Shown: positions 3,257 through 24,000, counted from the first letter of the stretch. The stretch is DNA of 24,000 nt from Nanobdellota archaeon (GCA_038045705.1 JBBSXO010000003.1:128828-152827); one strand, 5' to 3'. Notes: generated by a model not told the origin, from the sequence alone. A program made the numbers and translations.

Positions 3257-3306
3257 TAATTTTATTAAAATAATCAGTTACGCATGAAAGGATACGAAGA
3301 GGGGTA

Positions 3307-3378
3307 TGCGCCGGTCGGGAATCGAACCCGACTCTTCGACTTGGGAAGCCGAAATCTTAACCGATGGACCACCGGCGC
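3307..3378 (-). tRNA. tRNA-Gly (anticodon CCC), 72 nt, no encoded CCA, no intron
   Basis: The reverse complement reads GCGCCGG-TG-GTCC-ATCGGTTA-AGAT-T-TCGGC-TTCCCAA-GTCGA-AGAGT-TCGGG-TTCGATT-CCCGA-CCGGCGC-A. It has a perfect 7-bp acceptor stem and a 5-bp anticodon stem with one G-U. The anticodon loop is TT-CCC-AA, the T-arm is TCGGG/TTCGATT/CCCGA, the variable loop is 5 nt, and the discriminator is A73. It is not in the ORF track, and ORF 3306..4241 spuriously reads through it. Confidence 0.9.
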
Positions 3379-3399
3379 CTAAAGTTAGCAATGACAAGT

Positions 3400-3410
3400 C
3401 TTTTAAAAAG
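3400..3410. promoter_or_regulatory. single palindromic TATA-like box apparently shared by the divergent tRNA-Gly and ATPase genes
   Basis: CTTTTAAAAAG is nearly its own reverse complement. Its centre (3405) lies 27 nt from the tRNA 5' end (3378, minus strand) and 24 nt from the ATG at 3429 (plus strand). No other TATA-like element fits in the 50-nt spacer. Confidence 0.45.
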
Positions 3411-3428
3411 CTAATTACAAATTACAAT

Positions 3429-4241
3429 ATGAAAAAGAGCACAAAGAAAAATTGGAAAAGGTTCTTCAAATATCTTTGGCTTGTAATCTGGAACATAATA
3501 AAAATCCCTTATTACATAGTAAAATTAATTTCAAAAACTCAAGATAAATTAGAACAAAAAGAAATTAAACAGATAGTAGAAAAAAAGAGGGATTCAGTAA
3601 AAGCCATTTACCAAGATTTCAAAATATTAAATACACAGAACGGAAATTACAAAGAATATGAAAAATATATCTCGAGTGATAAAAGCAAGATAGGAATAAT
3701 TCTAGGTGCTAGAGGCACAGGTAAAACAGCAATTGGAATTAAAATATTAGAAAACATTTACGCAAAGAGCAAAAGAAAGTTATATGCTATAGGTTTCAAA
3801 AAAGAAGACATGCCTTCATGGATTGAAGTAATAGAAAGCATAGAAGAAATAAATAATAATTCAACAGTCCTAATTGATGAAGGAGGAGTTTTATTCAGTT
3901 CAAGAAATGCAATGACTAAACCCAACAAACTTCTTAGCCAGTTAATTCTCATTGCAAGGCATAAAAATCTTAACATCTTATTTATTTCTCAAAACTCATC
4001 AAACTTAGATGTAAACATACTAAGACAAGCAGACCATTTGATACTAAAGCCAACTTCCTTACTACAGGAAGACTTTGAAAGAAAAAAAATAAAAGAGATA
4101 TATGAAGAACAACAAGAAAACTTCAAAAAATATCAAAATATTAAAGGATACACATATATCTATTCAGAAGAGTTCAGAGGATTCATAGCCAACCCATTAC
4201 CATCATTTTGGAGTACAAATATCAGCAAGAGCTTCAGATAA
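3429..4241 (+). CDS. membrane-anchored P-loop NTPase, Zot-like (zonular occludens toxin / phage pI-type ATPase fold), function unknown
   Basis: The start is moved to ATG 3429 because the track start at 3306 overlaps the tRNA. An N-terminal hydrophobic helix is present (FFKYLWLVIWNIIKIPYYIV). Walker A is GARGTGKT (3706..3729) and Walker B is VLIDEGG (about 3870..3887). The following 'ARHKNLNILFISQNSSNLDVNILRQAD' matches my recollection of the Zot-family 'HRHxGxDIxxxTQxxxxLDxxIR' pattern. Confidence 0.55.
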   Translation: MKKSTKKNWKRFFKYLWLVIWNIIKIPYYIVKLISKTQDKLEQKEIKQIVEKKRDSVKAIYQDFKILNTQNGNYKEYEKYISSDKSKIGIILGARGTGKTAIGIKILENIYAKSKRKLYAIGFKKEDMPSWIEVIESIEEINNNSTVLIDEGGVLFSSRNAMTKPNKLLSQLILIARHKNLNILFISQNSSNLDVNILRQADHLILKPTSLLQEDFERKKIKEIYEEQQENFKKYQNIKGYTYIYSEEFRGFIANPLPSFWSTNISKSFR

Positions 4242-4272: not shown

Positions 4273-5715
4273 ATGACAAAAGAAACATTCTATATTACAA
4301 CCCCTATATACTATCCAAATGATATTCCACATTTGGGTCATGCATACACAACTATAGCAGCAGATGTAATGGCCAGATGGAATAAACTTCTTGGAAAAAA
4401 TGTATTCTTTCTAACAGGTACAGATGAACACGGTAAAAAATTAGCAGACACAGCTACAAAAAATAAACAGAAACCAAAAGAATTTATAGATAAATTAATA
4501 CCAGAATTCAAAAAAGATTGGAAAAGCCTAAACATAGAATATGATAGATTCATAAGAACAACAGACAAAGATCATGAGGATACAGTTCAGAAAATATTGC
4601 AAAAACTAGATGACAACGGAGATATTTACTTAGGAGAATATGAAGGGTTTTACTGTACTTCTTGTGAAGCCTATTACACTGAAAAAGACGCCCCTAATCT
4701 AAATTGCCCTATACACGAAAAACAATTAGATAAATTAAAAGAACCGTCCTATTTCTTTAAATTATCAAAATATGAAAAATTTTTGTTAGACCATTATAAA
4801 AAAAATCCAAATTTCATCCTGCCACAAAAAAGAGCAAATGAAGTAATAAACAGAGTAAAAGAAGGTCTAAAGGATCTAAGTATATCAAGAACTTCTTTTG
4901 ATTGGGGGATTCCTTTACCATTCAATAAAAAACACGTCACTTTCGTTTGGGTAGACGCCCTATTCAATTATTACTCTGCAACTCAAAGTGAAAAAAAATT
5001 AAACAAATTCTGGCCAGCAGATCTTCACTTAATTGGAAAGGATATTTTATGGTTTCACACAGTTTATTGGCCAGCACTTCTAAAAGCAGTAGATTTACCC
5101 TTGCCAAAGACAGTATTTGCTCATGGATGGTGGACAGTTAATAGTAAAAAGATGGGCAAGTCTACAGGTAATGCAGTAAAAATAAATGAGCTAATTAGTA
5201 TTGTAGGTGTAGATTCTGCTAGATATTTCTTACTTCGTGAAACTCCTCTAGGAGATGACGGAGATTTTTCTGAAAGCATGCTAATCGAACGTCACAACAA
5301 CGAACTAGCAAACAAACTAGGTAATCTAGTAAGCAGAGTCTCAGCTCTAGCTGAAAAATATGGAATTGAAAAAACAAAAAATAGTTTAGAAATAAAAGAA
5401 ACTCTAAAACAAATAGAAGAACATTTCAATAATTACGAATTGCATAAAGTCCTAGAGAGTATTTTCACATATATAGATAAAACAAATGAATACATACAAG
5501 AAAAGAAACCATGGGAAACAAAAGATAAAAAAGTATTATATGAGCTAGTTTTAGCAATAAAAAATATTGCAATTCTAGTCAGTCCATTCATGCCAGACAC
5601 AGCAGAGAAGATAGCTAAAACATTTAATTTCAAAATCTCTTTAGATGAGTTAGATAAAACTCTAAAGGAAAGCAAGATAGTTAAATCAGAAATTTTATTC
5701 CAAAAAATAACATGA
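4273..5715 (+). CDS. metG: methionyl-tRNA synthetase, catalytic core only (480 aa)
   Basis: Class I HIGH motif is PHLGHA (4328..4345) and the KMSKS variant is KMGKS (5149..5163). A Zn-knuckle-like CTSCEAYY...CPIHEK is present, along with typical MetRS blocks (YITTPIYYPN, FFLTGTDEHG, WFHTVYWPALL). Confidence 0.9.
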   Translation: MTKETFYITTPIYYPNDIPHLGHAYTTIAADVMARWNKLLGKNVFFLTGTDEHGKKLADTATKNKQKPKEFIDKLIPEFKKDWKSLNIEYDRFIRTTDKDHEDTVQKILQKLDDNGDIYLGEYEGFYCTSCEAYYTEKDAPNLNCPIHEKQLDKLKEPSYFFKLSKYEKFLLDHYKKNPNFILPQKRANEVINRVKEGLKDLSISRTSFDWGIPLPFNKKHVTFVWVDALFNYYSATQSEKKLNKFWPADLHLIGKDILWFHTVYWPALLKAVDLPLPKTVFAHGWWTVNSKKMGKSTGNAVKINELISIVGVDSARYFLLRETPLGDDGDFSESMLIERHNNELANKLGNLVSRVSALAEKYGIEKTKNSLEIKETLKQIEEHFNNYELHKVLESIFTYIDKTNEYIQEKKPWETKDKKVLYELVLAIKNIAILVSPFMPDTAEKIAKTFNFKISLDELDKTLKESKIVKSEILFQKIT

Positions 5716-6050
5716 CTGATAAAATACCCTTCACAGACTTTGAGAAAGTAGACTTGCGAGTTGGAACAATACTCGAAGTTGAGAATCATCCTAAAGCAGA
5801 TAAACTTTATGTCTTAAAAGTAGATTTAGGAGAAGATAGTCCAAGAACAATAGTAGCAGGTCTAAGACCACACTATACTCACGAAAACCTAAAAGGAAAA
5901 CAAGCCATATTCGTAGTTAATCTTGAACCAGTAAATCTCAGAGGAATAGAAAGCAATGGCATGATTCTAGCAGCCTCAAACCAAGAAAAAACTAATGTCT
6001 TTTTCTTAAAACCAGATAAACAAATAGCACCAGGAAGTAAAATACACTAA
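5712..6050 (+). CDS. stand-alone Trbp111/EMAP-type tRNA-binding domain protein (normally the MetRS C-terminal domain)
   Basis: Reads FEKVDLRVGTILEVENHPKADKLYVLKVDLGEDSPRTIVAGL...VVNLEPVNLRGIESNGMILA, the classic OB-fold tRNA-binding domain pattern. Its ATG (5712..5714) overlaps the MetRS TGA (5713..5715) as ATGA. Confidence 0.85.
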   Translation: MTDKIPFTDFEKVDLRVGTILEVENHPKADKLYVLKVDLGEDSPRTIVAGLRPHYTHENLKGKQAIFVVNLEPVNLRGIESNGMILAASNQEKTNVFFLKPDKQIAPGSKIH

Positions 6051-7335: not shown

Positions 7336-7668
7336 TCACTCAGAAGAAAGTTCAATTATTGTTTGAGCTATATCCCCCTCATTCCTTTCAAGAGCACTCT
7401 TTGATCCATCATAATCTTTTCCAGTTTTTTCCATAATTAAACGAATATCTTCTTCGGAAATACCTATCTCCTCTTCATTAGCCTCTCCAGATATTTGCCA
7501 TGTTTGTTGACCTTGCATAGTTACTTTAACAACAGAAGGATTTTCAATCACAATCTTAGATCCATCATTTTTCTCAATAACAACACGAGAAGCATCAACT
7601 TCATCTTGTTTAATACCCATCTGCTTCATCATAGCTTGCATCTTCTTAGGGTCAATTCCGCCAAACAT
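7336..7668 (-). CDS. nac: nascent polypeptide-associated complex protein (archaeal NAC: NAC domain plus C-terminal UBA)
   Basis: Reads MFGGIDPKKMQAMMKQMGIKQDEVDASRVVIEKNDGSKIVIENPSVVKVTMQGQQTWQISG, followed by a UBA-like EEDIRLIMEKTGKDYDGSKSALERNEGDIAQTIIEL. This is the typical archaeal NAC layout and size (110 aa). Confidence 0.9.
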   Translation of the reverse strand: MFGGIDPKKMQAMMKQMGIKQDEVDASRVVIEKNDGSKIVIENPSVVKVTMQGQQTWQISGEANEEEIGISEEDIRLIMEKTGKDYDGSKSALERNEGDIAQTIIELSSE

Positions 7669-12175: not shown

Positions 12176-12394
12176 ATGTATAACATGGAAACCGAATTAA
12201 AAACTTTGGCAAGAACAAGGAGAATAGGGGGATCTCTAGTTATAACAATACCTATGGAAATAGTAAAAGAAGAACAGCTAGAAGAAAATCAAGTAGTAGA
12301 AATTTCTGTAAAAAAATCAAGAAAAAGTTACTTTGGAGCACTCAAAGGAATAGGTCCTTTCACAAGAAAAGATAGAATGGAAGATAGATTTTAA
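12176..12394 (+). CDS. vapB: AbrB/SpoVT-fold antitoxin (VapB-type)
   Basis: RRIGGSLVITIPMEIVKEEQLEENQVVEISVKK is the typical swapped-hairpin AbrB/MazE-like motif. The 72-aa ORF has a stop (12392..12394) that overlaps the next ATG by 1 nt (TAATG). Confidence 0.75.
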   Translation: MYNMETELKTLARTRRIGGSLVITIPMEIVKEEQLEENQVVEISVKKSRKSYFGALKGIGPFTRKDRMEDRF

Positions 12395-12777
12395 TGAAAT
12401 ACTTTGTTGACTCCTCCGCGTGGATAGAATATTTTAATGGAAGTTCAGCAGGCGAAAAAGTAAATGACATTATGTTAAATGAGGAAAGCGAAATATTTAT
12501 CATTAACATTAATATAGGAGAAGTCGTTAGTTTTCTAAAAAGAGAAAGCAAAAACATTGAAACCGCTTATGAATCTATGATAAAAAGAGCAAAAATATTT
12601 GAGATAACTCCAAGGATTGCCAAAGAAGCTGGAATATTGCACGCGGAAAAAAGAATGAACAAATCAACTATTTCTTTGGCAGACACTTTAATCATTAGTG
12701 CTGCAAAATCAATAAATGCAAAAATAGTAGCTAAAGATCCTCATTTTAAAGATGTAAAAGAAGCAATTCTACTCTAA
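12394..12777 (+). CDS. vapC: PIN-domain ribonuclease toxin (VapC)
   Basis: MKYFVDSSAWIEYF carries the first conserved Asp. Later acidic residues occur in NIGEV, LADTLIISAA and KDPHF. The 127-aa size and translational coupling to an AbrB antitoxin also fit. Confidence 0.8.
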   Translation: MKYFVDSSAWIEYFNGSSAGEKVNDIMLNEESEIFIININIGEVVSFLKRESKNIETAYESMIKRAKIFEITPRIAKEAGILHAEKRMNKSTISLADTLIISAAKSINAKIVAKDPHFKDVKEAILL

Positions 12778-13983: not shown

Positions 13984-16900
13984 TCAATTGTAACCTGTCT
14001 TCCTAATTAATCTGTTTCCCATCAAACTCTTAAATCTCCTATGCTTTCTCACAGAATGAACTATTACTATCATTACAATAATTATCCCAACAATAAGAGT
14101 ACTCATTATTATCCAGAATACTAATCTTATTTGAGAATCAATAGGACTATCTTCAGTCAATGTTTCAGTTTCCTCCAAATCTTCATCGACTAACTGAGTT
14201 TCATCAAGCTCAATATTATCATTATCATTAGAACATCCTGTATCAGATGGATAGTCAACTAATCCATCACCATCATTATCAACTTCATCATTACATTGAG
14301 TAACTAAAGTATTAGTTCTTCTAGGAGGACCACCAGTCCCACTTCCAGAACTACTTCCACTTCCAGATCCAGAACTACTAGAACCAGATCCAGTCCCACA
14401 CGTTCCACAATCAGAAGCACAAGAAGAACAAGTCTCACTTAATACATGACAATAATTATCTCCACAAGTAGAGTTTAGAGTACTGTAATTACTAAACCCT
14501 ACAGCAGTCATCACAAATTCACCATTAGAGTAAGATAAAGGAGTACACTTTGTAGAAGGACAAGTAACATTCCCAGATGAAGTCTGAATTATAGGAACAG
14601 GAGCTTGAGTATAACTCAAGTTATAGAAAGTAACTCTAGCAGTTTGATTCAATTCAACATAACTTTCACTATATACTCCAACTATATTACTTGCAATAGC
14701 AATAGCATTATTCAAGTTCAAAGCCTGATAAACTCCAGAAACAGATCTCCACAATGAAACCTGTTGTCCTAAGTACTGTATTCTTCCAAGTCCTGGAATT
14801 CCAATAGAAAAGTCAACAACTCTAGTCAAATCAGTAATATTAGAAATATTAGTAGTCAGATTATTATTAAATCTAGAGTAAAGAGGAATAGGACATCCAC
14901 TATCTCCTACTAAATCACGAGTTCCATCACAATCATTATCCAGTCCATCTCTACACAATTCAACCCCAGTTTCAACAGTAGCATATCCTGAAATAGAATT
15001 GTAATTACATCCAGGCCAGTTATTATTAGTACAAGTCTCAAATGAATTCAGACAAACTCCTCTCTGTTCTCCACAGTTTCTAACCTGTCCGTTAGTACAA
15101 ACAGGTAAACTCAAAACAGTTAAGTTATAATTTACATTTCTAACAACTGTTCCACTTGTTCCAGTAATTATAATACTTTGATTAGAAACCAAAGTAGCAC
15201 TAGAAGAAGCAGATAAAGTAAGAGTTGAAGAGCAAGAATTTCCACTAGAAGGAGTACAACTTGTTGGATTAAATAACGCAGAAATTCCAGCAGATAAGTT
15301 AGTAGCAGTAAATGTCACAGCAGATGAAGTTCCAGAAGTATGAGTCGCAGTAACTGTAGTAGAAACAGTGTTACCTCTTTGTACAGATCCAGATGTAGGA
15401 CTTCTAGAAATTGTAAAGTCTAATGGAGCACTTTGATTTGTAGTATTACTAGCAAGATTAGACCAACCTGAAACACCAACACTATTATTCGCTAAAACTC
15501 TATATTCAAATGAAGTACTTGTAGGCAAACCATTATCAGTAAATGTAATTGTATTTGCAGGCAAGTTAGAAGCAGTAGACAATACATTAAAGCTACCAGA
15601 AGGTAATTGTCTTCTCTCAACTCTGAAGTTCATTTCATTATCGCTATTGTCTTTCCAATTAAGTCTCAACTGTATAGAACTTACTGGAGTAACGTTTAAG
15701 TCAGAAGGGGAGTTAGGCAAACTCCCAGGTACACATCCCTCATCAACCTGACCATCACAGTCATTATCTAATCCATCACAAGTGCTTTCAATTACTTGAT
15801 AATTAGAATTATGAGTTACATATGTAGTAGGTGAATAAGTAGGGGCACTGCATCCCCACCAATTCTTAAACTTACAAGTCTCTCTTGATCCAGCACAAAC
15901 TCCTCTCTGTTCTTGACAATTTCTTTGCGTGTTTTCAGTACAGAGATCATTAGGGTTCCATTGCCGACCATAATCAGACCTATGAGTAACCCATAATTGG
16001 TCAAGCCATCTTCGCCAATCAGGAAATTGGGTAACACCTTCAATTTGCATATAACGATCCATATATGGGAAATAAACATCATGATTCCAAAGATCAGTAA
16101 TGCCCATAATATGAGCGGCTAAAGCATAACCAACCCATGAACTAGCAGTACAACAAATACGATAACCATTTCCAGTCCAAATAACATTATCACCTCTAGG
16201 ATCGTCCCAATGATTCCAACCCCAATCAGGAAGTCCTATATCAGCAGAAGTATACCCTCCATAACCACAATTCACACCTCCTGCAGAACATTCAGGAATA
16301 ACAGAAGGAGGTGTATTTACAGGATAATTAGTTACAGCAAAAGTCTGTCCAGTATCTCCAAAATAGCCTGGATCAGTATTATCAAAACGAATCCTAGACA
16401 TACCTTGATCATTAAGCAAAGCTCCCGCAAAAAGAATTGGGAACAACCGACCGGAGCCATGGCCCCCATTAGGAAACCAAGAATCATTAACATTAACACG
16501 ATTGTTAAAAGCACCATAGAAATCAATACCTAATTGAGTAAGCATAACAACTAATCTTTCTTTTTCCGCATTAGTATAATTAAGATTAACTAAAATAGCT
16601 ATATAAGAAACATCTAAAGCAAAAGCTCCACCATATCCAGAGGCACCTAAAGAAGGTTGAACCCCTTCAGTTCTCCAATAATTAGTCTGAACATTAACAC
16701 GTTCAAATGTTTTTTCTATCTGTGATATGTTTAAAGGAGAAGGTGGAGCGCTAGAGGGAGTTAATCTTCCCAGACGATTATAATCTAATTGATTTTTATT
16801 AAAACGAATAGTTTTATCTGTTCCAAAATAAGTCGGTCTAAAACTATTTGCTGGAGGTACTTGAGTAAGAATAGTTAATACTGCAGCATCTCTAACAAAA

Positions 16901-17859
16901 CCTCTTGTACATGAGAATGTAATGCTGTTAACTGCATCCCAGCCATATGTAGCTCCGCAAGTAGAAGGAGTAGTCTGACTTTCTGTAGATAAAAGAGATG
17001 CAGAAGCAGTAATAGTTAAAGGGAAAGTTGGCCGTAATGTAGCATCATAAGAAGGCCCATCATTATTACTAAGACGATCATCATAAGGTTGACCGCTTAG
17101 ACCACTACGAAAACTTGGATTCAACCATGAACCATGCCTTCCAGGTATTTGTAAAGGAGAAGTACTAGTAATTGTTACAGGACCAATAACCCACCAATCT
17201 CCATTAGCAAATTGCCCGCATTCAACAGGTGTTTGAAAATTCCAAGTAATTCCATAACGAGTAATTGAAGAACACAAAGCACTTTCAGGTCCAGACCCAC
17301 CAGAAGGAGATAAAGAAGAATCATCGCCATAAAAAAGATAAATTTTTTCAGAAACCAAATTCTTAGAATAACTAGGAGAAGAGCTAAGACTAACAATAGA
17401 ATAAATTTCAAGTCTAGAATCTTCTGAAGATTCATCCGCCAAAATTAAAACTCCATCGGTAATTTTCCAGTCAAATGAAGCAACACCATTTTCAAAAACG
17501 CTTTGAAGATTAATTATATGGTCATCAAACAGGATATCTTTTTCAAAAATCTCAAAATCAACTTTATAACCATCACAATTTTTTCCAAAAACTTCAAAGT
17601 GAACAACATCTCCAATTTTAACAGAATTAACACTCGATGAAACTCTTTCAATTATACACGAAGAACCAATATCTACATTAGGAAAAGTTCTAAGATCTGA
17701 AATATTAAGAAGAGAATCTTCTTCAGAAATAACTTTGCCTGTAATTGTCCCATCAATATCAAAAAAACTATAAGTCTTATTTACGTCAAAAAATAAAACA
17801 AAAGAAAAAAAAGCAATAAAAAAAACAAATATAATAAAAAAATCAACACTCCACTTCAT
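13984..17859 (-). CDS. giant modular surface protein A (1291 aa): N-terminal signal/anchor, beta-sandwich, about 450-aa unassigned enzyme-like domain, Cys-rich DNDCDG module, FN3, Ig-like, second Cys-rich module, shared C-terminal cassette with TM anchor
   Basis: - N-terminus is MKWSVDFFIIFVFFIAFFSFVLFF.
- The FN3-like domain is at about 15430..15715 (PSDLNVTPVSSIQLRLNWKDNSDNEMNFRVERR...FEYRVLANNSVGVSGWS).
- CxxQRGVC...CDGLDNDCDG modules are at about 15725..15950 and about 14890..15110.
- The Gly/Ser linker is at about 14333..14397.
- QCNDEVDNDGDGLVDYPSDTGC is at about 14230..14305.
- The C-terminal TM helix is FWIIMSTLIVGIIIVMIVIV, followed by a basic tail.
- There are many N-x-S/T sequons.
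- The reading frame is uninterrupted for 3.9 kb in AT-rich DNA. Confidence 0.85.
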   Translation of the reverse strand: MKWSVDFFIIFVFFIAFFSFVLFFDVNKTYSFFDIDGTITGKVISEEDSLLNISDLRTFPNVDIGSSCIIERVSSSVNSVKIGDVVHFEVFGKNCDGYKVDFEIFEKDILFDDHIINLQSVFENGVASFDWKITDGVLILADESSEDSRLEIYSIVSLSSSPSYSKNLVSEKIYLFYGDDSSLSPSGGSGPESALCSSITRYGITWNFQTPVECGQFANGDWWVIGPVTITSTSPLQIPGRHGSWLNPSFRSGLSGQPYDDRLSNNDGPSYDATLRPTFPLTITASASLLSTESQTTPSTCGATYGWDAVNSITFSCTRGFVRDAAVLTILTQVPPANSFRPTYFGTDKTIRFNKNQLDYNRLGRLTPSSAPPSPLNISQIEKTFERVNVQTNYWRTEGVQPSLGASGYGGAFALDVSYIAILVNLNYTNAEKERLVVMLTQLGIDFYGAFNNRVNVNDSWFPNGGHGSGRLFPILFAGALLNDQGMSRIRFDNTDPGYFGDTGQTFAVTNYPVNTPPSVIPECSAGGVNCGYGGYTSADIGLPDWGWNHWDDPRGDNVIWTGNGYRICCTASSWVGYALAAHIMGITDLWNHDVYFPYMDRYMQIEGVTQFPDWRRWLDQLWVTHRSDYGRQWNPNDLCTENTQRNCQEQRGVCAGSRETCKFKNWWGCSAPTYSPTTYVTHNSNYQVIESTCDGLDNDCDGQVDEGCVPGSLPNSPSDLNVTPVSSIQLRLNWKDNSDNEMNFRVERRQLPSGSFNVLSTASNLPANTITFTDNGLPTSTSFEYRVLANNSVGVSGWSNLASNTTNQSAPLDFTISRSPTSGSVQRGNTVSTTVTATHTSGTSSAVTFTATNLSAGISALFNPTSCTPSSGNSCSSTLTLSASSSATLVSNQSIIITGTSGTVVRNVNYNLTVLSLPVCTNGQVRNCGEQRGVCLNSFETCTNNNWPGCNYNSISGYATVETGVELCRDGLDNDCDGTRDLVGDSGCPIPLYSRFNNNLTTNISNITDLTRVVDFSIGIPGLGRIQYLGQQVSLWRSVSGVYQALNLNNAIAIASNIVGVYSESYVELNQTARVTFYNLSYTQAPVPIIQTSSGNVTCPSTKCTPLSYSNGEFVMTAVGFSNYSTLNSTCGDNYCHVLSETCSSCASDCGTCGTGSGSSSSGSGSGSSSGSGTGGPPRRTNTLVTQCNDEVDNDGDGLVDYPSDTGCSNDNDNIELDETQLVDEDLEETETLTEDSPIDSQIRLVFWIIMSTLIVGIIIVMIVIVHSVRKHRRFKSLMGNRLIRKTGYN
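14249..14349. repeat. 101-nt near-identical DNA patch shared with 18192..18292 (copy in protein A gene)
   Basis: Base-by-base comparison by hand gives 7 mismatches in 101 nt, with the last 37 nt identical (14313..14349 = 18256..18292, TAGTTCTTCTAGGAGGACCACCAGTCCCACTTCCAGA). It encodes GGPPRRT..LVTQCND.VDNDGDGLVDYP. Confidence 0.9.
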
Positions 17860-17917
17860 AAAGAAAAAAGAATAAGGCTATTTATAAGGTTTATTATAGC
17901 TCTATCTCGACTACAAA
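17860..17917 (-). promoter_or_regulatory. promoter of giant protein A gene in the 58-nt gap between the two giant genes
   Basis: TTTATAA (17881..17887) is centred about 25 nt upstream of the ATG at 17859. The 14-mer AATAAGGCTATTTA (17871..17884) is identical to 421..434, upstream of the left-edge ORF. Confidence 0.45.
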
Positions 17918-20900
17918 TCAAATCCCTAGAGGAGGCGAATTACTTGAACTTGAAGCAACTTTTGCAAGATTATTAAATCTATTTTTTCCAATCAAATATC
18001 TAAGGATGATCATAGAAGCAATAACAATTCCACCAATAAGCGCAACAATAACTATCCAAAAGATAATCTTTATCTCAAAGACTCTTTCAAGAGGAGTAGG
18101 TAAGCTTTGGTCTTCACCTTCTGATTCATCAATCAAAGAGTCTACATTCAATTCAACATTATCTTGGGCATTGCTACAACCAGCATCTCTAGGATAATCA
18201 ACTAGTCCATCACCATCATTGTCAACTCTATCATTACATTGAGTAACTAAAGGAGTAGTTCTTCTAGGAGGACCACCAGTCCCACTTCCAGATCCAGAAC
18301 CTGAGCCAGATCCACTTCCACTAGAAGAAGGGCATGCCCCACAATCAGAACTACAAGAAGAACAAGTCTCACTCAGGCTGCAGTAAGTGTCTCCACAACT
18401 AGAGTTTCTAGTACTATAATTACTAAATCCAGCAACATTCATACTAAATACACCATTAAGATAAGCCAAACTTTGACATGATGTAGAAGGACAAATAACA
18501 TATCCAGTAGAACTTGAAACAACAGGAGTAGGTGCTTCCGAATAAGACAAACCTTCAAATGTTAAAACAGCAGTTTGATCAAGTTCAGGATTACTTAGAG
18601 CATCAACACCAATCAAATTATTTTCTATAGTTACAGCATCATCCAAATTCAAGGCCTGATGAATTCCAGAAGCATTTCTCAAAACAGAAACTCTCTGTCC
18701 TAAGTATTGTATTCTTCCAGCTCCAGAAACTGCTAGAGACATATCTTGAACATTGCTTAAATCAGGAACAGCAAAGAAATTAGTAGTCAATGGAGAAATA
18801 AATCCAGTAACAGAAGGAACAGGACACCCATTCAAAGTACTAACAACTGTAGATATAGACGTATTAAGACATAAATCTAAATTATTTGGAACTGGTCCAT
18901 CTGGAATACTGTCTCCATCATTATCAAAACTACAGATATTATTATAACACAATCCAGTAGTATATGTAGAACCAGCAATAACGCAATCAGAGCCAGAGCT
19001 TAATAGACAAGACTCTCCAAAATCACACAACAAACCAGCAGGTGTGCAAATAGGGCCACCGCCATCTCTACAGGTTTCATGAGAATCCTGAATACCATTA
19101 CTACATTCAGCAAGAGTTCCTGTCTCTCCTTGCAAAGTCAATGTAACCCGACGGACAACGTTAGTAGTTTGAGATGTTGCAGTAATAACTATGGGATAAT
19201 TTTGTTCAACAACATTTCCAACATCTACATCAAGAGTTACATTACAAGTAGGATTAGGGTTTCCAGCACTAGGAGTACATCTATCTGATCCAACAAAACT
19301 AACAGAAGCTTCAGGAATAGATTGAGCAGACACAACAACTTCTTCTTGAGTCATTTCAACAAGACTCTCTAATTTAACTTCGACATTAAATGAAGATCCA
19401 GAAACAACAGGAACTGTAGAAGGATTCAAAGTAGATAGATAACTAAATGGATAATTCACTCTAAGATTTTGCGGAGAAGAAGAAACAATACCATCTCCAC
19501 TTATAACTCTTATTGCAAAATCACCTACTAATGTCCCTAATATTCCAGGAGGTAAAGACAATTGTATTAAGTTAGAATTAGCAACAGTTGTTAAAGGAGT
19601 TATATCTATTCCATTTGCAGTAACAAAAGCCAAAGGATCAAAATCATTTCCAACTAGATTAATAATATTATTAACATTGTTAACAATAATATTAGGAGAA
19701 ATAGAATTTATCACAGGACTAGATCTCAAAGTAAAAGTGAAAGAGTTAGAATTCAGTCCAGGAGCAGGAGTCGGATTTACAACACTAATGGAGTGAGTTC
19801 CAACTCTAAATGTTTCAGCCTCAATATTAAAAGAGATACTATTTCCAGTAATAACTAAGTTCTGACATTGCGTAGAACAAGGAACTCCATCAATTCTTAA
19901 TTCAGCATTAGACGCAAAATATTGCCCATTAATAGTTAAAGCATTATCAGATCCCCACAAAAATATAGGGCTAGGAAGATTATTTATGTTATTTATAACT
20001 GGGCTCTGATCAACACAACCGCAAGAATTAGCATTACAACTTTGTGATTGAGAACAACCACTACTAGAATCACATGTAGCACCACACTGATTGATCCTAC
20101 ATTGATAAGAACCAGCACAAGTACCTGCATCTACACATCTATCTGGACTACCACTAGATTTAGTTCCACTAGTACCAGCACATTCAACACACCATTGACA
20201 AAGATTACCAGGTGCAGTATTACAAGATGTACTTGTACTGTATCCAGAACAAGAACCAGCAGTTATTTGCACGTTAGAAGTCAAAGCATTTCCGCTTCTA
20301 TAAGATATAGAAGAATCAATATCACATCTTGCAATTTGAGTTATTCCAGGAGTAGAAGAACTTAAACAATTAAAAGTAGCTGTACTTCCACTAGAACTAG
20401 ATAAAGCACAAGTAGAGGAACCAATAAATCCATCTAATGCAACGGCAACATTTGCAGGATTTGAAGTACAAACTAAATTAAAATTAGTATTTGCATTAAC
20501 ACTAGAAGGCGCATTTATGTTTGTAATCTGAATAGAACATCCACTATCTCCTTTAATTAAACCATCTCCACTTCCAATATAATCTCTTCCACCAGTAGCA
20601 ATATTGAGTTCATCACAGTCATTATCCATACCATCAGAACACAAAGCAGAACCAGTTTCAACAGAAGCATAATTGGGACTATGAGATGAATATGTCCCAG
20701 AAGTGCAAGCCTCAAACTCTCCATCAACACATCTAGCAACAGAACCTTGACAAACACCCTGTTGATTGCTACAAGGAATAGTATCAACACCATCAAGACA
20801 AGTAGTAGCTTCTATAGTCAAAGGTAACCAATTAGCAGAATACTGCAAGAAAGGATTGCCAGTAGGATCAAATACATTAGCATATTGATATTCTAAAGAT

Positions 20901-21973
20901 GCAGGATCCTGTCCTTGAGGAATTACAAAAGTAAATGTATTGCTATCAACCCAATTACAATTATAATTACTTCCAACAAGGTAATTACAAACATCTATAG
21001 TCGTTTGAGTAAGTGTATCTCTTACAAAAATTGAATACTCTGGCATCAAATTAGTCCCGGTAATTGTAATTGGTCTTGCAATATTATGTCTTACAGTCCC
21101 GGGAGTTAATGTATTAATTACAGGAACAGGTGCATTCCTAATAGTAAGCTGCTGAGGTTGAGATTCTCGAAAATTATCTAAATTAACAACCTTAATATCG
21201 TAAACATCTGCAATAGCATTTCTCTGTACAGGAAATCTAATTTCATTAACACTAACTCTAGAACAACCAAGAGTCGCAAAAGAACAATAAGGATCATAAT
21301 TAGATTGTTCTTGAGGTTTATAAAAAATAGCAAAATTAACTGGAAGGTTATCTCCTAGCATAGAAACATCAGTTAAAACATGATTGTAAACAGGGTTAGG
21401 ATTAAACGAATTAATAATAGGAGCATCAGATAAAGTAACTCCAGTAGCTGTATTTGACCAAGGAGATGATAAAATTATATTATAAGCAAGAACTCTATAA
21501 TCGTAAGAAGTGCTTGGCATAAGATTATTATGTATAAATGATTCTGTATTTGGAGGTAAACCATTAGCTCCCTGAACATCTGCCCAAGCAGACTCTGGAG
21601 CAGAAGATAATTTATATTGTAAAATAAATCCATCTTCACTATTACTTGGACTATTACTATTGTCAGTCCAATCCAGCCTTATAGAAGAAAAACTTAAAGG
21701 TGTAGCAGTTAAATCACTAGGTGGTAAAGGTGGTTCAGTTGGATCATCAGTAGGCTGTAAAAGAATGCCATCGACAGGATTAACAAAAGGATAAATAATT
21801 TTAGACAAAACAGAATCTCCCAATTCATATTCGGAAGGTGAAGCCTCTCCAGTAGAAATATATTCTGCAACACAAGGAAGAGAACCACAATTATTAGCAT
21901 AATCTAAGTAAAGCACAAAAGCAGATAAAAAACTAAAAATAACAACTACAAATAAAAAACCATCTCTTTTCAT
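17918..21973 (-). CDS. giant modular surface protein B (about 1351 aa from ATG 21973): N-terminal anchor, FN3, 2 IPT/TIG-like, Cys-rich DNDCD module, Cys/Ser/Gly-rich segment, 2 IPT/TIG-like, Ig-like, Cys-rich linker, shared C-terminal cassette with TM anchor
   Basis: - The start is moved from the TTG at 22108 to the ATG at 21973 (MKRDGFLFVVVIFSFLSAFVLYL).
- The FN3-like domain is at about 21430..21725 (PPSDLTATPLSFSSIRLDWTD...YDYRVLAYN).
- IPT/TIG-like repeats begin PIINSFNP, PVINTLTP, PVINNINN and PVINSISP (about 20815..21430 and 19450..20005).
- CSNQQGVCQGS...CSDGMDNDCDE is at about 20535..20810.
- The C-terminal third is paralogous to protein A, including the (GS)n linker, QCNDRVDNDGDGLVDYPRDAGC and the TM helix IIFWIVIVALIGGIVIASMIIL. 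Confidence 0.85.
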   Translation of the reverse strand: MKRDGFLFVVVIFSFLSAFVLYLDYANNCGSLPCVAEYISTGEASPSEYELGDSVLSKIIYPFVNPVDGILLQPTDDPTEPPLPPSDLTATPLSFSSIRLDWTDNSNSPSNSEDGFILQYKLSSAPESAWADVQGANGLPPNTESFIHNNLMPSTSYDYRVLAYNIILSSPWSNTATGVTLSDAPIINSFNPNPVYNHVLTDVSMLGDNLPVNFAIFYKPQEQSNYDPYCSFATLGCSRVSVNEIRFPVQRNAIADVYDIKVVNLDNFRESQPQQLTIRNAPVPVINTLTPGTVRHNIARPITITGTNLMPEYSIFVRDTLTQTTIDVCNYLVGSNYNCNWVDSNTFTFVIPQGQDPASLEYQYANVFDPTGNPFLQYSANWLPLTIEATTCLDGVDTIPCSNQQGVCQGSVARCVDGEFEACTSGTYSSHSPNYASVETGSALCSDGMDNDCDELNIATGGRDYIGSGDGLIKGDSGCSIQITNINAPSSVNANTNFNLVCTSNPANVAVALDGFIGSSTCALSSSSGSTATFNCLSSSTPGITQIARCDIDSSISYRSGNALTSNVQITAGSCSGYSTSTSCNTAPGNLCQWCVECAGTSGTKSSGSPDRCVDAGTCAGSYQCRINQCGATCDSSSGCSQSQSCNANSCGCVDQSPVINNINNLPSPIFLWGSDNALTINGQYFASNAELRIDGVPCSTQCQNLVITGNSISFNIEAETFRVGTHSISVVNPTPAPGLNSNSFTFTLRSSPVINSISPNIIVNNVNNIINLVGNDFDPLAFVTANGIDITPLTTVANSNLIQLSLPPGILGTLVGDFAIRVISGDGIVSSSPQNLRVNYPFSYLSTLNPSTVPVVSGSSFNVEVKLESLVEMTQEEVVVSAQSIPEASVSFVGSDRCTPSAGNPNPTCNVTLDVDVGNVVEQNYPIVITATSQTTNVVRRVTLTLQGETGTLAECSNGIQDSHETCRDGGGPICTPAGLLCDFGESCLLSSGSDCVIAGSTYTTGLCYNNICSFDNDGDSIPDGPVPNNLDLCLNTSISTVVSTLNGCPVPSVTGFISPLTTNFFAVPDLSNVQDMSLAVSGAGRIQYLGQRVSVLRNASGIHQALNLDDAVTIENNLIGVDALSNPELDQTAVLTFEGLSYSEAPTPVVSSSTGYVICPSTSCQSLAYLNGVFSMNVAGFSNYSTRNSSCGDTYCSLSETCSSCSSDCGACPSSSGSGSGSGSGSGSGTGGPPRRTTPLVTQCNDRVDNDGDGLVDYPRDAGCSNAQDNVELNVDSLIDESEGEDQSLPTPLERVFEIKIIFWIVIVALIGGIVIASMIILRYLIGKNRFNNLAKVASSSSNSPPLGI
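18192..18292. repeat. 101-nt near-identical DNA patch shared with 14249..14349 (copy in protein B gene)
   Basis: See the paired feature: 94 of 101 positions are identical by hand alignment. Flanking sequence stays recognisably similar at lower identity, for example TCCACAA(G/C)TAGAGTTT..AGTACT.TAATTACTAAA.CC at about 14461 versus about 18392. Confidence 0.9.
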
Positions 21974-22087
21974 TACAATAGATATAACTAAGTCATTTAT
22001 AAAGTTTATTCTAAAAATTACTAGATTATTAATAACTATATCTTTAATGGTAACAAACAATATAAAGCAAAATCCATCTGCAACACA
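21974..22087. promoter_or_regulatory. divergent promoter region (giant protein B / MCM)
   Basis: TTTATAAA (21996..22003) is centred about 27 nt from the minus-strand ATG at 21973. AATATAAAGC (about 22059..22068) is centred about 24 nt from the plus-strand ATG at 22088. Confidence 0.45.
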
Positions 22088-24000
22088 ATGGAGCTTGGAA
22101 AGAAACAAGAATTGGAACTAGAAGCAAAAAGATTCTTTGAAAGCTATAAGAAAGAAATATTTCAATCAATAAGAGGAGGAGGTCAAGTTGTAATTTTAGA
22201 ATTCGATATGTTATCTAGATTTTCTCCAATGCTTTCTGAAAAGCTCTTAGAAATTCCAGAAGAAATAACTGCACTATTAGAAATCTCATTGGATGAGACT
22301 GGTCTCATAAAAAATCCAAGAATCAGATTCAAAACACTTCCAGATTCGGTAAAAATAAAAATAAAAGAAATTCGTGCAAAACACCTAGATCAATTTATTG
22401 CAATTGAAGGAATAGTAAGACAAGCTTCAGATGTTAGACCACAAGTTGTAAACGCAAGATTCGAGTGTCCTACATGTGGTGCAATTTTATCAGTTCTTCA
22501 AATAGACAGAAAGTTTCGTGAGCCTTCAAGATGTTCCTGTGGGAGAAAAGGTCTATTCAAATTATTATCAAAAGAAATGGTTGATGCTCAGCGTCTAGTG
22601 ATTGAGGAATCTCCCGACTCACTAGATGGAGGTGAACAACCAAGAAGAATGAATGTTTTTCTGAAAGAAGACTTAGTAGATCCTAAAATGGAAGAGAGAA
22701 CAACTCCAGGAAGCAAGGTAAAAATAATTGGAGTTCTAAAAGAAGTCCCTGTTCCACTACCACAAGGCTCTATTTCAACAAGATTTGATTTAGCAATTGA
22801 AGCCAATAATGCAATCCCTTTAGAAGAAACATTCGATGATTTAGAAGTTAATGAAAAAGATGAAGAAGAGATAAGGAAAATAGCATCGGATCCAAAAGCT
22901 TTTGAAAAGTTAGCATCAAGTATAGCTCCTAGTGTATATGGTTTCAAAGAAGTGAAAGAAGCAATTCTATTACAATTATTTTCAGGAGTAAAAAAGAAGC
23001 GTTCTGACGGGGGAAATACGAGGGGAGATATTCATATTTTATTAGTAGGAGATCCAGGAGTAGCAAAATCAGTTACTTTAAAATTTGTATCAAGTATTGC
23101 TCCAAAGGGACGTTATGTTTCAGGTAAAGCTACAACTGGAGCTGGGTTGACTGCAAGTGTAATAAAAGATGAGTTTCTAAAGGGCTGGTCTTTAGAAGCA
23201 GGAGCAATGGTGTTAGCAAATAAAGGTTTAATAGCCATTGATGAAATTGAAAAAATGGACGAACATGATCGTTCAACTATGCATGAAGCGATGGAACAAC
23301 AAAGCGTAACAATATCTAAAGCTAATATTCAGGCAACATTAAGATCTGAAACATCTGTTCTAGCTGCAGGAAATCCAAAACTAGGAAGATTTGACCCAAT
23401 AATTCCAATTCCTCAACAAATTAACATTTCTCCAGCGCTTTTAAGCCGTTTTGACGTAATTTTTGTTTTGAGAGACTTGCCCAATAGAGTGCAAGATGAA
23501 GCAATCGCATCACATGTTTTAGAAGAACATAAGCAAGAAGTAGAGAGAGATGTAATTAATCCAAAAATGTTACGTAAATATATTGCATACGCTAGAAAAA
23601 AAGTAAAACCCAAGTTAACAGATGAGGCAGCCGATGAAATAAAAGAATTCTATATATCCATACGTAATAAAGCAATCACTTCAAATTCAGAAGTAAAAGC
23701 AATCCCTATTACTGCAAGACAGTTAGAAGCAATAGTAAGATTATCAGAAGCATGTGCAAAAATTAGATTAAGCAATTACGTTGCTTTAGAAGATGCAAGA
23801 AGAGCCATAGCACTCTTAAAATATTCAATGATGCAAGTAGGTTTTGACCAAGAAACCCAATCATTTGATATTGATAGAGTCACAACAGGAATACCCGCAT
23901 CAAAGAGGAATAAAATTATAGTAGTTCGAGACACAATAGCAAAGTTAGAATCAAGTCTAGGAAAACTAATACCTACAATAGAATTAGAAAAAGAAATAGG
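22088..24000 (+). CDS. mcm: MCM replicative helicase, N-terminal about 637 aa (ORF continues past the right edge)
   Basis: Absent from the ORF track because there is no stop in the window. The hand translation runs from ATG 22088.
- C4 zinc finger: CPTCG...CSCG (about 22466..22545).
- Walker A: GDPGVAKS (about 23049..23072).
- Walker B: IAIDEIEKM (about 23234..23257).
- MCM signature: SVTISKANIQATL...AAGNP.
- Arginine finger: SRFD (about 23443..23454).
- The start of a C-terminal winged-helix region is also visible. Confidence 0.9.
   Translation, partial: MELGKKQELELEAKRFFESYKKEIFQSIRGGGQVVILEFDMLSRFSPMLSEKLLEIPEEITALLEISLDETGLIKNPRIRFKTLPDSVKIKIKEIRAKHLDQFIAIEGIVRQASDVRPQVVNARFECPTCGAILSVLQIDRKFREPSRCSCGRKGLFKLLSKEMVDAQRLVIEESPDSLDGGEQPRRMNVFLKEDLVDPKMEERTTPGSKVKIIGVLKEVPVPLPQGSISTRFDLAIEANNAIPLEETFDDLEVNEKDEEEIRKIASDPKAFEKLASSIAPSVYGFKEVKEAILLQLFSGVKKKRSDGGNTRGDIHILLVGDPGVAKSVTLKFVSSIAPKGRYVSGKATTGAGLTASVIKDEFLKGWSLEAGAMVLANKGLIAIDEIEKMDEHDRSTMHEAMEQQSVTISKANIQATLRSETSVLAAGNPKLGRFDPIIPIPQQINISPALLSRFDVIFVLRDLPNRVQDEAIASHVLEEHKQEVERDVINPKMLRKYIAYARKKVKPKLTDEAADEIKEFYISIRNKAITSNSEVKAIPITARQLEAIVRLSEACAKIRLSNYVALEDARRAIALLKYSMMQVGFDQETQSFDIDRVTTGIPASKRNKIIVVRDTIAKLESSLGKLIPTIELEKEI

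Follow-up and report, generated by a model that had tools for sequence, protein, structure and literature searches.

A large unnamed domain family, possibly glycan-active, on a giant stalked surface protein of a DPANN archaeon

We analyzed a 24,000-nucleotide stretch of DNA from a Nanobdellota archaeon (GCA_038045705.1 JBBSXO010000003.1:128828-152827; hereafter, the window), in which protein A, a protein of 1291 amino acids (aa) encoded at 13984-17859 on the minus strand, carries a large globular domain at residues 198-630 (15970-17268, minus strand). The domain is not an orphan, its family having thousands of members. We infer from its context that it is an extracellular glycan-degrading or glycan-modifying enzyme head belonging to this large unnamed family, a reading to which we give a probability of roughly 0.45.

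A preliminary description of the window had placed a discrete domain at 15950-17290, which was correct to about 20 nucleotides (nt). A leave-one-out family profile, from which the window sequence had been excluded, aligned over all of its positions (395 of 395) with A 198-630 (E 2e-143), and the homology-supported span is now 15970-17268. The peptides quoted in that description all lie where it had put them, running from SITRYGITWNF (A 198-208, 17236-17268) to DYGRQWNPNDL (A 629-639, 15943-15975), with SWFPNGGHGSGR... at A 460-482, LPDWGWNHWDD... at A 543-586, and FPYMDRYMQIEG at A 597-608, and the segment that they delimit corresponds to A 198-639 (15943-17268). The domain is rich in Trp and Gly (17 and 44, respectively, in 442 aa) and, as had been claimed, not of low complexity, with an entropy of 4.11 bits overall and 3.14 bits in the lowest 30-aa window. 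Only 1 copy of the domain was found in the six-frame translation of the window. Its absence from the paralogous giant protein B was upheld, since, even at E 1000 and with filtering disabled, the profile had no match in B, and in a BLASTP comparison of the two proteins only A 648-1279 aligned. The placement of the domain on the extracellular part of A likewise agreed with the features read from the sequence, namely an N-terminal signal-like segment, a transmembrane anchor at the C-terminus, and a long stalk made up of modules.

A homologue search identified 137 relatives down to E 1e-131, and an exhaustive profile search identified 4,472 cluster representatives (clustering at 50% identity), of which 2,473 reached E <= 1e-30. 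In species-representative genomes, 562 encoding loci were identified, with Planctomycetota (including Brocadiaceae/Kuenenia) dominant and further carriers among Chloroflexota, Spirochaetes, Desulfobacteria, Bacteroidetes, Oligoflexia, and others. A second large branch, reached through the most divergent member (P0120), included Phycisphaerae, Pseudonocardiaceae, Bdellovibrionales, and 1 bacterium of the candidate phyla radiation (CPR), and this branch still yielded no annotated core. In phages, the family corresponds to phrog_34846, which matched the A domain at E 1.1e-52. The great majority of members were labeled "hypothetical protein" in the source records (about 580 aa in Planctomycetota), and the few other names reflected accessory domains only. 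Some bacterial proteins contained two to about 5 complete tandem copies of the domain (P0121, of 3989 aa, and P0122, P0123, P0125, P0126, P0128, and P0149), and in many members about 100 aa are inserted near profile position 300.

The preliminary description had been unable to assign the domain to a named family, and Pfam, NCBIfam, and PDB sequence searches bore this out. Pfam identified nothing on the domain in A, in B, or in the excised domain, and in 8 homologues, as well as in 70 diverse members searched at E <= 10, accessory domains alone were matched and the core was not. NCBIfam gave nothing on the domain, and searches of PDB sequences with the single sequence (phmmer) and with a 91-sequence profile gave nothing credible (best E 0.54). 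The literature on DPANN surface glycan enzymes and on uncharacterized genes of Planctomycete exopolysaccharide (EPS) loci held nothing specific to the domain.

We searched the bacterial members for signs of secretion, partner modules, and informative gene neighborhoods. An N-terminal hydrophobic run was present in 293 of 355 Met-starting members and a lipobox-like motif in 69, and some members carried type IX secretion system (T9SS) sorting tails or dockerins. Fused partners included LamG_3, malectin, CHB_HEX_C (chitobiase-C) together with Fn3_assoc, BACON_2, dockerin, beta-helix, and DUF5648, along with PKD, Big, He_PIG, and cadherin-like immunoglobulin-like (Ig-like) domains. Because the members carry separate binding modules, the core would be expected to supply something besides binding. 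The gene adjoined polysaccharide-synthesis or -degradation genes in 5 of the 6 bacterial contexts read in detail, with neighbors encoding glycosyltransferases (GTs) of families GT2 and GT4, Alg13/14, asparagine synthase (AsnB), Wzz, Wzy_C, Poly_export, a UDP-sugar dehydrogenase, an acyltransferase, and a Pel9A-like beta-helix protein, and tandem paralogs were often present at these loci. In a crude survey, GT- or EPS-type open reading frames (ORFs) lay within about 6 kb of the gene at 37 of 80 genome loci and, counting only loci 10 kb or longer, at 28 of 48; about one GT per 60-100 kb is expected in such genomes, and the claim of enrichment is based on this expectation.

Polar and aromatic residues were conserved across phyla in the family alignment, in line with the enzyme-like reading of the preliminary description. 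Residues are numbered here by domain position, with 275 and 306 corresponding to A 472 and 503, and 79, 192, and 214 to A 276, 389, and 411. Over 351 non-DPANN domain copies, 48 positions were at least 90% conserved, and the polar positions in this set were N22, D24, D63, S91, S97, T132, R144, Y147, K152, Y212, K236, Q245, D249, K275, Y369, W394, Y402, D404, and R405. The beta subdomain of the predicted fold holds N22, D24, and D63, and its linker and helical subdomain hold R144, Y147, K152, Y212, K236, Q245, D249, R274, Y369, Y402, D404, and R405. Because conserved polar residues come from both subdomains, a site at the interface between them is suggested. A vicinal Cys pair in the helical subdomain (C372 and C373) was conserved at 76-77%. 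In toroid polysaccharide lyases, a Tyr/His base-acid pair and an Asn, Arg, or Gln charge neutralizer are placed around the +1 uronate, and candidates for these roles were Y369 (98%), Y402 (97%), H204 (86%, Gln in the window), R144 (100%), and Q245 (99%).

Three sequence blocks had been proposed as conserved cores of a catalytic fold, and they proved only partly conserved. In GGHGSGR, G268, G269, and G273 stood at 92-98% and R274 at 90% in a 356-copy set (R274 reached 100% in the 91-sequence alignment), with H270 at 69-76%, and DRYM was conserved at D404 (90%) and R405 (98%). WNHWDD did not stand, as only its His (H353) was conserved, at 62-89% depending on the set, and the remaining five positions were variable.

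The window domain retained 18 of the 19 universal polar residues, the sole loss being K275, and 59 of the 70 positions conserved at 90% or more in non-DPANN members (their own median being 68 and minimum 55). A decaying or pseudo-domain was ruled out by this retention and by clade changes common to six archaeal sequences. Positions 275 and 306 occurred as K-D (303 times), L-L (5), L-Y (2), and R-G (4), with L-T also seen. The 2 positions thus appear to form a structural contact, because they covary pairwise in several independent lineages, and on the same ground K275L/D306T was rejected as the loss of a catalytic pair. E305D was rejected as a disabling change, Asp being present there in 26 of 356 copies. 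Positions 79, 192, and 214 switched jointly by subfamily (N-W-R, V-Q-[A/S/G], and R-[N/Y]-[G/Q] in DPANN), and from this pattern they are candidate specificity positions.

AlphaFold2 with the family alignment modeled the window domain at a predicted local distance difference test score (pLDDT) of 90.4 and a predicted TM-score (pTM) of 0.93, and the whole of P0107, a compact bacterial member, at pLDDT 87 with the core above 90. The 2 models had the same order of strands and helices, comprising a beta subdomain of about 135 residues, a conserved linker in extended conformation (…PPAxSFRPPYxGxDKTIR…), and a helical subdomain containing about 7 long helices. In protein A, the beta subdomain covers residues 198-332 (16864-17268, minus strand; DSSP strands at domain positions 2-134 of the model) and has, at domain positions 106-115, a loop with Cys that was modeled with low confidence, and the linker and helical subdomain cover residues 333-630 (15970-16863, minus strand; DSSP helices at domain positions 181-433).

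Foldseek searches of PDB with both models identified nothing at E <= 0.001 (best E 0.37 and 0.81, TM-score <= 0.27). Among the top 50 sub-threshold matches, 18 and 22 for the 2 models, respectively, were toroid polysaccharide lyases (PLs) or glycoside hydrolases (GHs), including GH116, GH127/146, GH9, GH95, GH81, GH78, PL5, PL15, PL17, PL38, and an AGE-family epimerase. GH116 was the best match to a carbohydrate-active enzyme for the window model, at an insignificant E of 0.63 (TMq 0.25, root-mean-square deviation [RMSD] 7.7 A). The models therefore give a hint that the helical subdomain is toroid-like; the earlier guess of an alpha/alpha-toroid gained from the frequency of such enzymes among the sub-threshold matches and found no significant PDB match.

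We identified the domain in phages as well. A 706-aa domain protein is encoded by 21 Cluster J (Omegavirus) mycobacteriophages (e.g., Redno2 gp43 and Halley gp45), in which residues 1-221 correspond to phrog_8174, a "minor tail protein" with LamG, and residues 241-706 to the domain (phrog_34846). The phage and A domains were 33% identical over 99% coverage (tblastn E 1e-54), and Foldseek against BFVD returned two phage proteins at E ~1e-31 and TM-scores of 0.73-0.76 (E 3e-31 and TM-score 0.76 for the phage domain against the A domain). The phage gene closes the series of large genes in the tail block; lysin A, lysin B, and holin come next, after a small hypothetical ORF. The virion mass-spectrometry table of Omega in the Cluster J phage paper lists no 706-aa protein, Omega not being among the 21 homologue-bearing phages. 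The Redno2 record labels the homologue "lysin A" and the next large gene "endolysin / Lysin B", with a separate cutinase-family gene, whereas in the Halley record these positions read "minor tail protein", "lysin A", and "lysin B". The labeling of Redno2 appears shifted by one gene relative to Halley and was set aside as functional evidence. The domain was also carried by 32 IMG/VR contigs, and the three read in detail were one in which it is fused to a tail-fibre-like segment (L101), one in which its gene lies two genes past that of a protein with a tailspike N-terminus (L103), and one in which its gene lies among head and virion structural genes (L110).

The six DPANN copies of the domain (the window, its L009 ortholog, Woesearchaeota L010, P0003, P0004, and P0005) grouped as a single clade with a long stem, within the bacterial sequences, in a midpoint-rooted neighbor-joining tree carrying no support values. 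Because the DPANN copies form one clade within the bacterial ones, a single bacterial-to-archaeal transfer fits. In all six, the domain follows a signal segment, and it is preceded by the same Ig-like module in those with a complete N-terminus; the contig that encodes P0003, a protein of 612 aa, is unmistakably archaeal. Otherwise conserved sites changed in this clade were M48W, G61P, N79R, W192N/Y, H204Q/T, K275L/M/F, and D306T/L/I/K.

Divergence along protein A was uneven. Its full-length ortholog in a Nanoarchaeota metagenome-assembled genome (MAG; L009, 5371-9549) was 60% identical overall and 60% identical in the domain, compared with 83% in the N-terminal module, 83% in the Cys knot and fn3, 87% in the Ig-like module after fn3, 89% in residues 926-1000, 79% in the C-terminal module shared with B, and 61% in the C-terminal 141 residues (Gly/Ser and acidic linker, transmembrane helix, and tail). 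By the Nei-Gojobori method, the nonsynonymous (dN) and synonymous (dS) divergences between the 2 orthologs were 0.37 and 0.73 in the domain (198-639; dN/dS 0.50), 0.09-0.12 and 0.48-0.50 in the flanking modules (1-197, 640-1150; dN/dS 0.19-0.24), and 0.33 and 0.69 in the C-terminal tail (1151-1291; dN/dS 0.48). The domain is thus as divergent as the C-terminal tail, with both far above the stalk modules. Identity changed sharply near residues ~198 and ~640, and dS was also raised in the domain. Because of the sharp boundaries and the higher domain dS, diversifying or relaxed selection on the head, or a head swapped as a cassette, fits. The acceleration agrees with the excess of nonsynonymous single-nucleotide polymorphisms in surface proteins of Nanoarchaeota (PMC6142677).

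Taken as an enzyme head, the domain would have been acquired from bacteria by a DPANN groundwater lineage (Nanoarchaeota/Woesearchaeota-type) and mounted on a giant stalked surface protein. Its beta and helical subdomains would form a cleft lined by conserved aromatic and Asp, Arg, Lys, Tyr, and Gln residues, in which a polysaccharide chain could be bound and cut by beta-elimination or hydrolysis. The archaeal head may act on a polysaccharide outside the cell, such as a partner capsule, EPS, surface glycan, or biofilm matrix, much as phage tail depolymerases do, and rapid divergence between close relatives may reflect different targets. The bacterial role would be EPS or capsule processing or foraging, and the phage role envelope penetration or recognition. 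The conserved set rich in Tyr, Arg, Lys, and Gln and the neighboring UDP-sugar dehydrogenase lean slightly toward a lyase acting on acidic polysaccharides. The glycan- or cell-wall-active enzyme of the preliminary description is partly supported: accessory domains, EPS-locus neighborhoods, and phage tail modules point indirectly to glycans, and catalysis, the substrate, and the breaching of a host envelope are inferences. A more specific proposal, that this is a new PL or hydrolase family with a beta-plus-partial-toroid fold lacking any solved relative, whose DPANN branch, derived from bacteria, is a rapidly diversifying enzymatic tip comparable to a phage tail depolymerase and opens the glycan coat of a partner for attachment or feeding, we regard as doubtful.

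Several observations weigh against a glycan-active enzyme. Pfam, PDB sequence, and Foldseek PDB searches gave no significant structural or sequence link to a characterized enzyme, and the tandem multi-copy proteins and the C-terminal place on the phage tail protein also fit a binding head. H204, which is His in 86% of copies, is Gln or Thr in DPANN, and the archaeal copies may be inactive if this residue is catalytic; in the same clade K275 and D306 are swapped for hydrophobic residues, and R214G and E305D occur in the window copy alone among the DPANN copies compared. No EPS genes lie nearby at the DPANN loci, and the enrichment of GT neighbors is a crude one, judged against an expectation and not a measured background. 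The domain dN/dS of 0.50 could reflect relaxed constraint.

The alternative that survives best, although we consider it rather unlikely, is a non-catalytic receptor- or glycan-binding head, in which an adhesive stalk tip recognizes a partner polysaccharide in the manner of a phage receptor-binding protein. It would account for the location at the C-terminus of a minor tail protein in phages and the fusion to a tail-fibre segment, for the domain being the fastest-diverging module between orthologs, for up to ~5 tandem copies per protein, for a DPANN clade lacking H204, K275, and D306, and for the lack of a match to any catalytic family. However, a typical binding module is a small single beta-sandwich with few conserved polar residues, which the domain is not, and the binding-only reading is lowered because the domain has 430 aa, two subdomains, and 48 positions conserved at 90% or more, and this across phyla at 30-40% overall identity. 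Its conserved set includes several Asp, Arg, Lys, and Tyr residues, which is unusual for binding modules; LamG, malectin, BACON, and CHB_HEX_C are already present as dedicated binding-type modules, some members carry a dockerin, and the K275/D306 covariation points to structural change and not loss of function.

An enzyme that trims or remodels the archaeon's own envelope or secreted polysaccharide, in the manner of AlgL, PslG, or BcsZ, is improbable. Bacterial members are embedded in polysaccharide-synthesis loci with Wzz, Wzy, GTs, and Poly_export, and EPS synthesis loci such as the alg, psl, and bcs operons are the classic place of self-directed EPS-processing glycanases. Yet the DPANN gene lies outside such loci with its domain in the distal part of a ~600-residue stalk, the phage copies must act on foreign envelopes, and rapid divergence is unexpected for a housekeeping role. 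An enzyme on a non-glycan substrate (e.g., a peptidase, an esterase, or one with S-layer protein or lipid as its target) is very improbable: the fold without a Foldseek assignment, the vicinal Cys pair and conserved His, and the phage gene close upstream of lysin A and lysin B, called "lysin A" in one record, could be read this way, but that label is the apparently shifted one, no peptidase or esterase family matched even at E 10, partner modules and neighbors are of carbohydrate type, and the Cys pair is missing in about a quarter of members.

As read from the translation, protein A has the layout of a type I membrane-anchored surface protein. It begins with a hydrophobic segment at residues 1-25 (MKWSVDFFIIFVFFIAFFSFVLFFD; 17785-17859), a putative signal peptide or signal anchor, followed by an Ig-like module at residues ~60-180 (17320-17682), which was recognized by eye along with a like module preceding the domain in the DPANN homologues P0004 and P0005, and by a Gly/Ser linker leading into the domain. 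Downstream of the domain lies a first Cys-rich MopE-like knot at residues 640-707 (...CDGLDNDCDGQVDEGC; 15739-15942), identified by Pfam PF11617 at E 2.4e-05, under the curated cut-off, with the motif itself at residues 691-707; BLASTP showed knot repeats in B as well. An fn3 module follows at residues 717-801 (15457-15711; Pfam PF00041, 26.5 bits against a 25-bit cut-off), then a second Ig-like module read from the translation and a second Cys-rich knot, a copy of the first, at residues 929-993 (14881-15075). The L009 ortholog has one additional fn3 module, and stalk modules have therefore been gained and lost.

A membrane-proximal beta module common to A and B occupies residues 1001-1150 (14410-14859) and was identified by BLASTP, in which A 784-1279 and B 864-1381 were 40% identical, and by a weak Nup98 S59-like match. 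This sub-threshold Pfam match to the Nup98 S59 autopeptidase beta-sandwich (PF04096) covered A 1009-1084 (14608-14835, minus strand) and the equivalent region of B, with E values of 0.039 for the whole of protein A, 0.0015 for the excised module, and 0.0054 for the L009 ortholog. No HFS-type cleavage motif was seen in the module, which may merely resemble that fold in structure or may serve as a shedding site. Next come a linker of Gly and Ser, an acidic motif with a double disulfide, and an acidic linker, then the C-terminal transmembrane helix at residues 1246-1267 (LVFWIIMSTLIVGIIIVMIVIV; 14059-14124), and finally a basic tail (HSVRKHRRFK...). All of these features are on the minus strand, and the domain lies in the distal third of the protein, with ~600 residues of stalk between it and the membrane.

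The window has a GC content of about 32%, a small-genome, low-GC archaeal profile, and encodes an MCM helicase, NAC, an eRF1/Pelota-type factor, class I aminoacyl-tRNA synthetases, and one tRNA. The nearest genomic relatives of the protein A gene were in MAGs labeled Nanoarchaeota archaeon (Hainich groundwater well H41) and Candidatus Woesearchaeota, and on the basis of gene content and these relatives we assign the window to a DPANN archaeon. The genes of A and B are arranged head to tail on the minus strand with a gap of 58 nt (17859-17918); on the related groundwater archaeal contigs L001 and L009, genes for a metallo-beta-lactamase (MBL)-fold hydrolase and a deoxyhypusine synthase lie between the B-like and A-like giants. 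Paralog B is listed at 17918-22108 (minus strand, 1396 aa), with a TTG start at 22108. This start overlaps the divergent ATG (22088) of the MCM helicase gene (22088-24000, plus strand, running past the window end; Pfam MCM 2e-89), and for this reason ATG 21973 (Met46), directly followed by a hydrophobic signal-like segment, is the more likely start, giving 17918-21973.

Elsewhere in the window, the sole tRNA, tRNA-Gly(CCC) at 3307-3378 (minus strand; Rfam 54 bits), lies wholly beneath the 5' end of the listed ORF of a Zot-like P-loop protein (3306-4241, plus strand), whose true start is probably downstream of the listed one. Three small ORFs at 12394-12777 (plus), 7336-7668 (minus), and 5712-6050 (plus) encode a PIN-domain protein, an archaeal NAC, and a stand-alone tRNA-binding domain, the last directly after the methionyl-tRNA synthetase (MetRS) gene, and represent an ordinary housekeeping context.

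If the family is catalytic, it marks a sizeable gap in carbohydrate-enzyme catalogues, with thousands of secreted proteins that have no Pfam, NCBIfam, or PDB anchor, spanning Planctomycetota, Chloroflexota, anammox bacteria, Actinobacteria, CPR bacteria, phages, and DPANN archaea, and it would be a concrete effector by which an ultra-small episymbiont handles the glycan coat of another cell. The proposed history, if true, would clearly exemplify the capture of a bacterial domain by an archaeon and its placement on a surface stalk, and the head, with a dN three to four times as high as in the stalk modules, is a candidate specificity determinant. Were it a binding head only, it would still be a new, widespread recognition module common to phage tails and archaeal adhesins.

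Judged from sequence, the domain belongs to its unnamed family, and it matched no known PL or GH family. Like the family, the toroid PLs and GHs (PL5, PL15, PL17, and PL38; GH116, GH9, and GH95) are secreted and have a helical domain, which in them is catalytic, and in enzymes of GH116/GH15/GH63 type the beta domain comes first and the helical one second, the same order as in the domain (DSSP strands, then helices). Conserved Tyr, His, Arg, Asn, and Gln residues also recall the active-site toolkit of PL5 and PL8 lyases, and D24, D249, and D404 are candidates only for a carboxylate pair of GH type. The toroid enzymes nevertheless matched the domain models at E >= 0.37 and TM-score <= 0.27 with an RMSD of about 8-20 A and had no Pfam match to it, and a full toroid has 10-14 helices compared with the ~7 long helices of the models. 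The EPS-locus glycanases AlgL, PslG, and BcsZ (PL5, GH39, and GH8) resemble the bacterial members in their position within GT/Wzz/Wzy/export clusters, and phage tailspike depolymerases resemble the phage members in their position within tail modules; their sequences and folds (beta-helix trimers in the tailspikes) are unrelated, and the analogy is functional only.

Like A, the fast-evolving hypothetical cell-surface proteins reported for Nanoarchaeota lie on the surface of DPANN archaea that depend on a host, and they show an excess of nonsynonymous change, as the A domain does. The study that reported them concerned thermophilic Nanoarchaeota populations and did not describe this domain (PMC6142677), and in A the acceleration is confined to the domain and the C-terminal tail. 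The Cluster J phage protein, labeled "hypothetical protein" in most records, differs from A in that its copy retains H204, K275, and D306, all three substituted in the DPANN clade, and in that its carrier is a minor-tail N-terminus with LamG, whereas that of A is an archaeal membrane stalk. In both proteins, the domain is set on a carrier that would present it to the surface of another cell.

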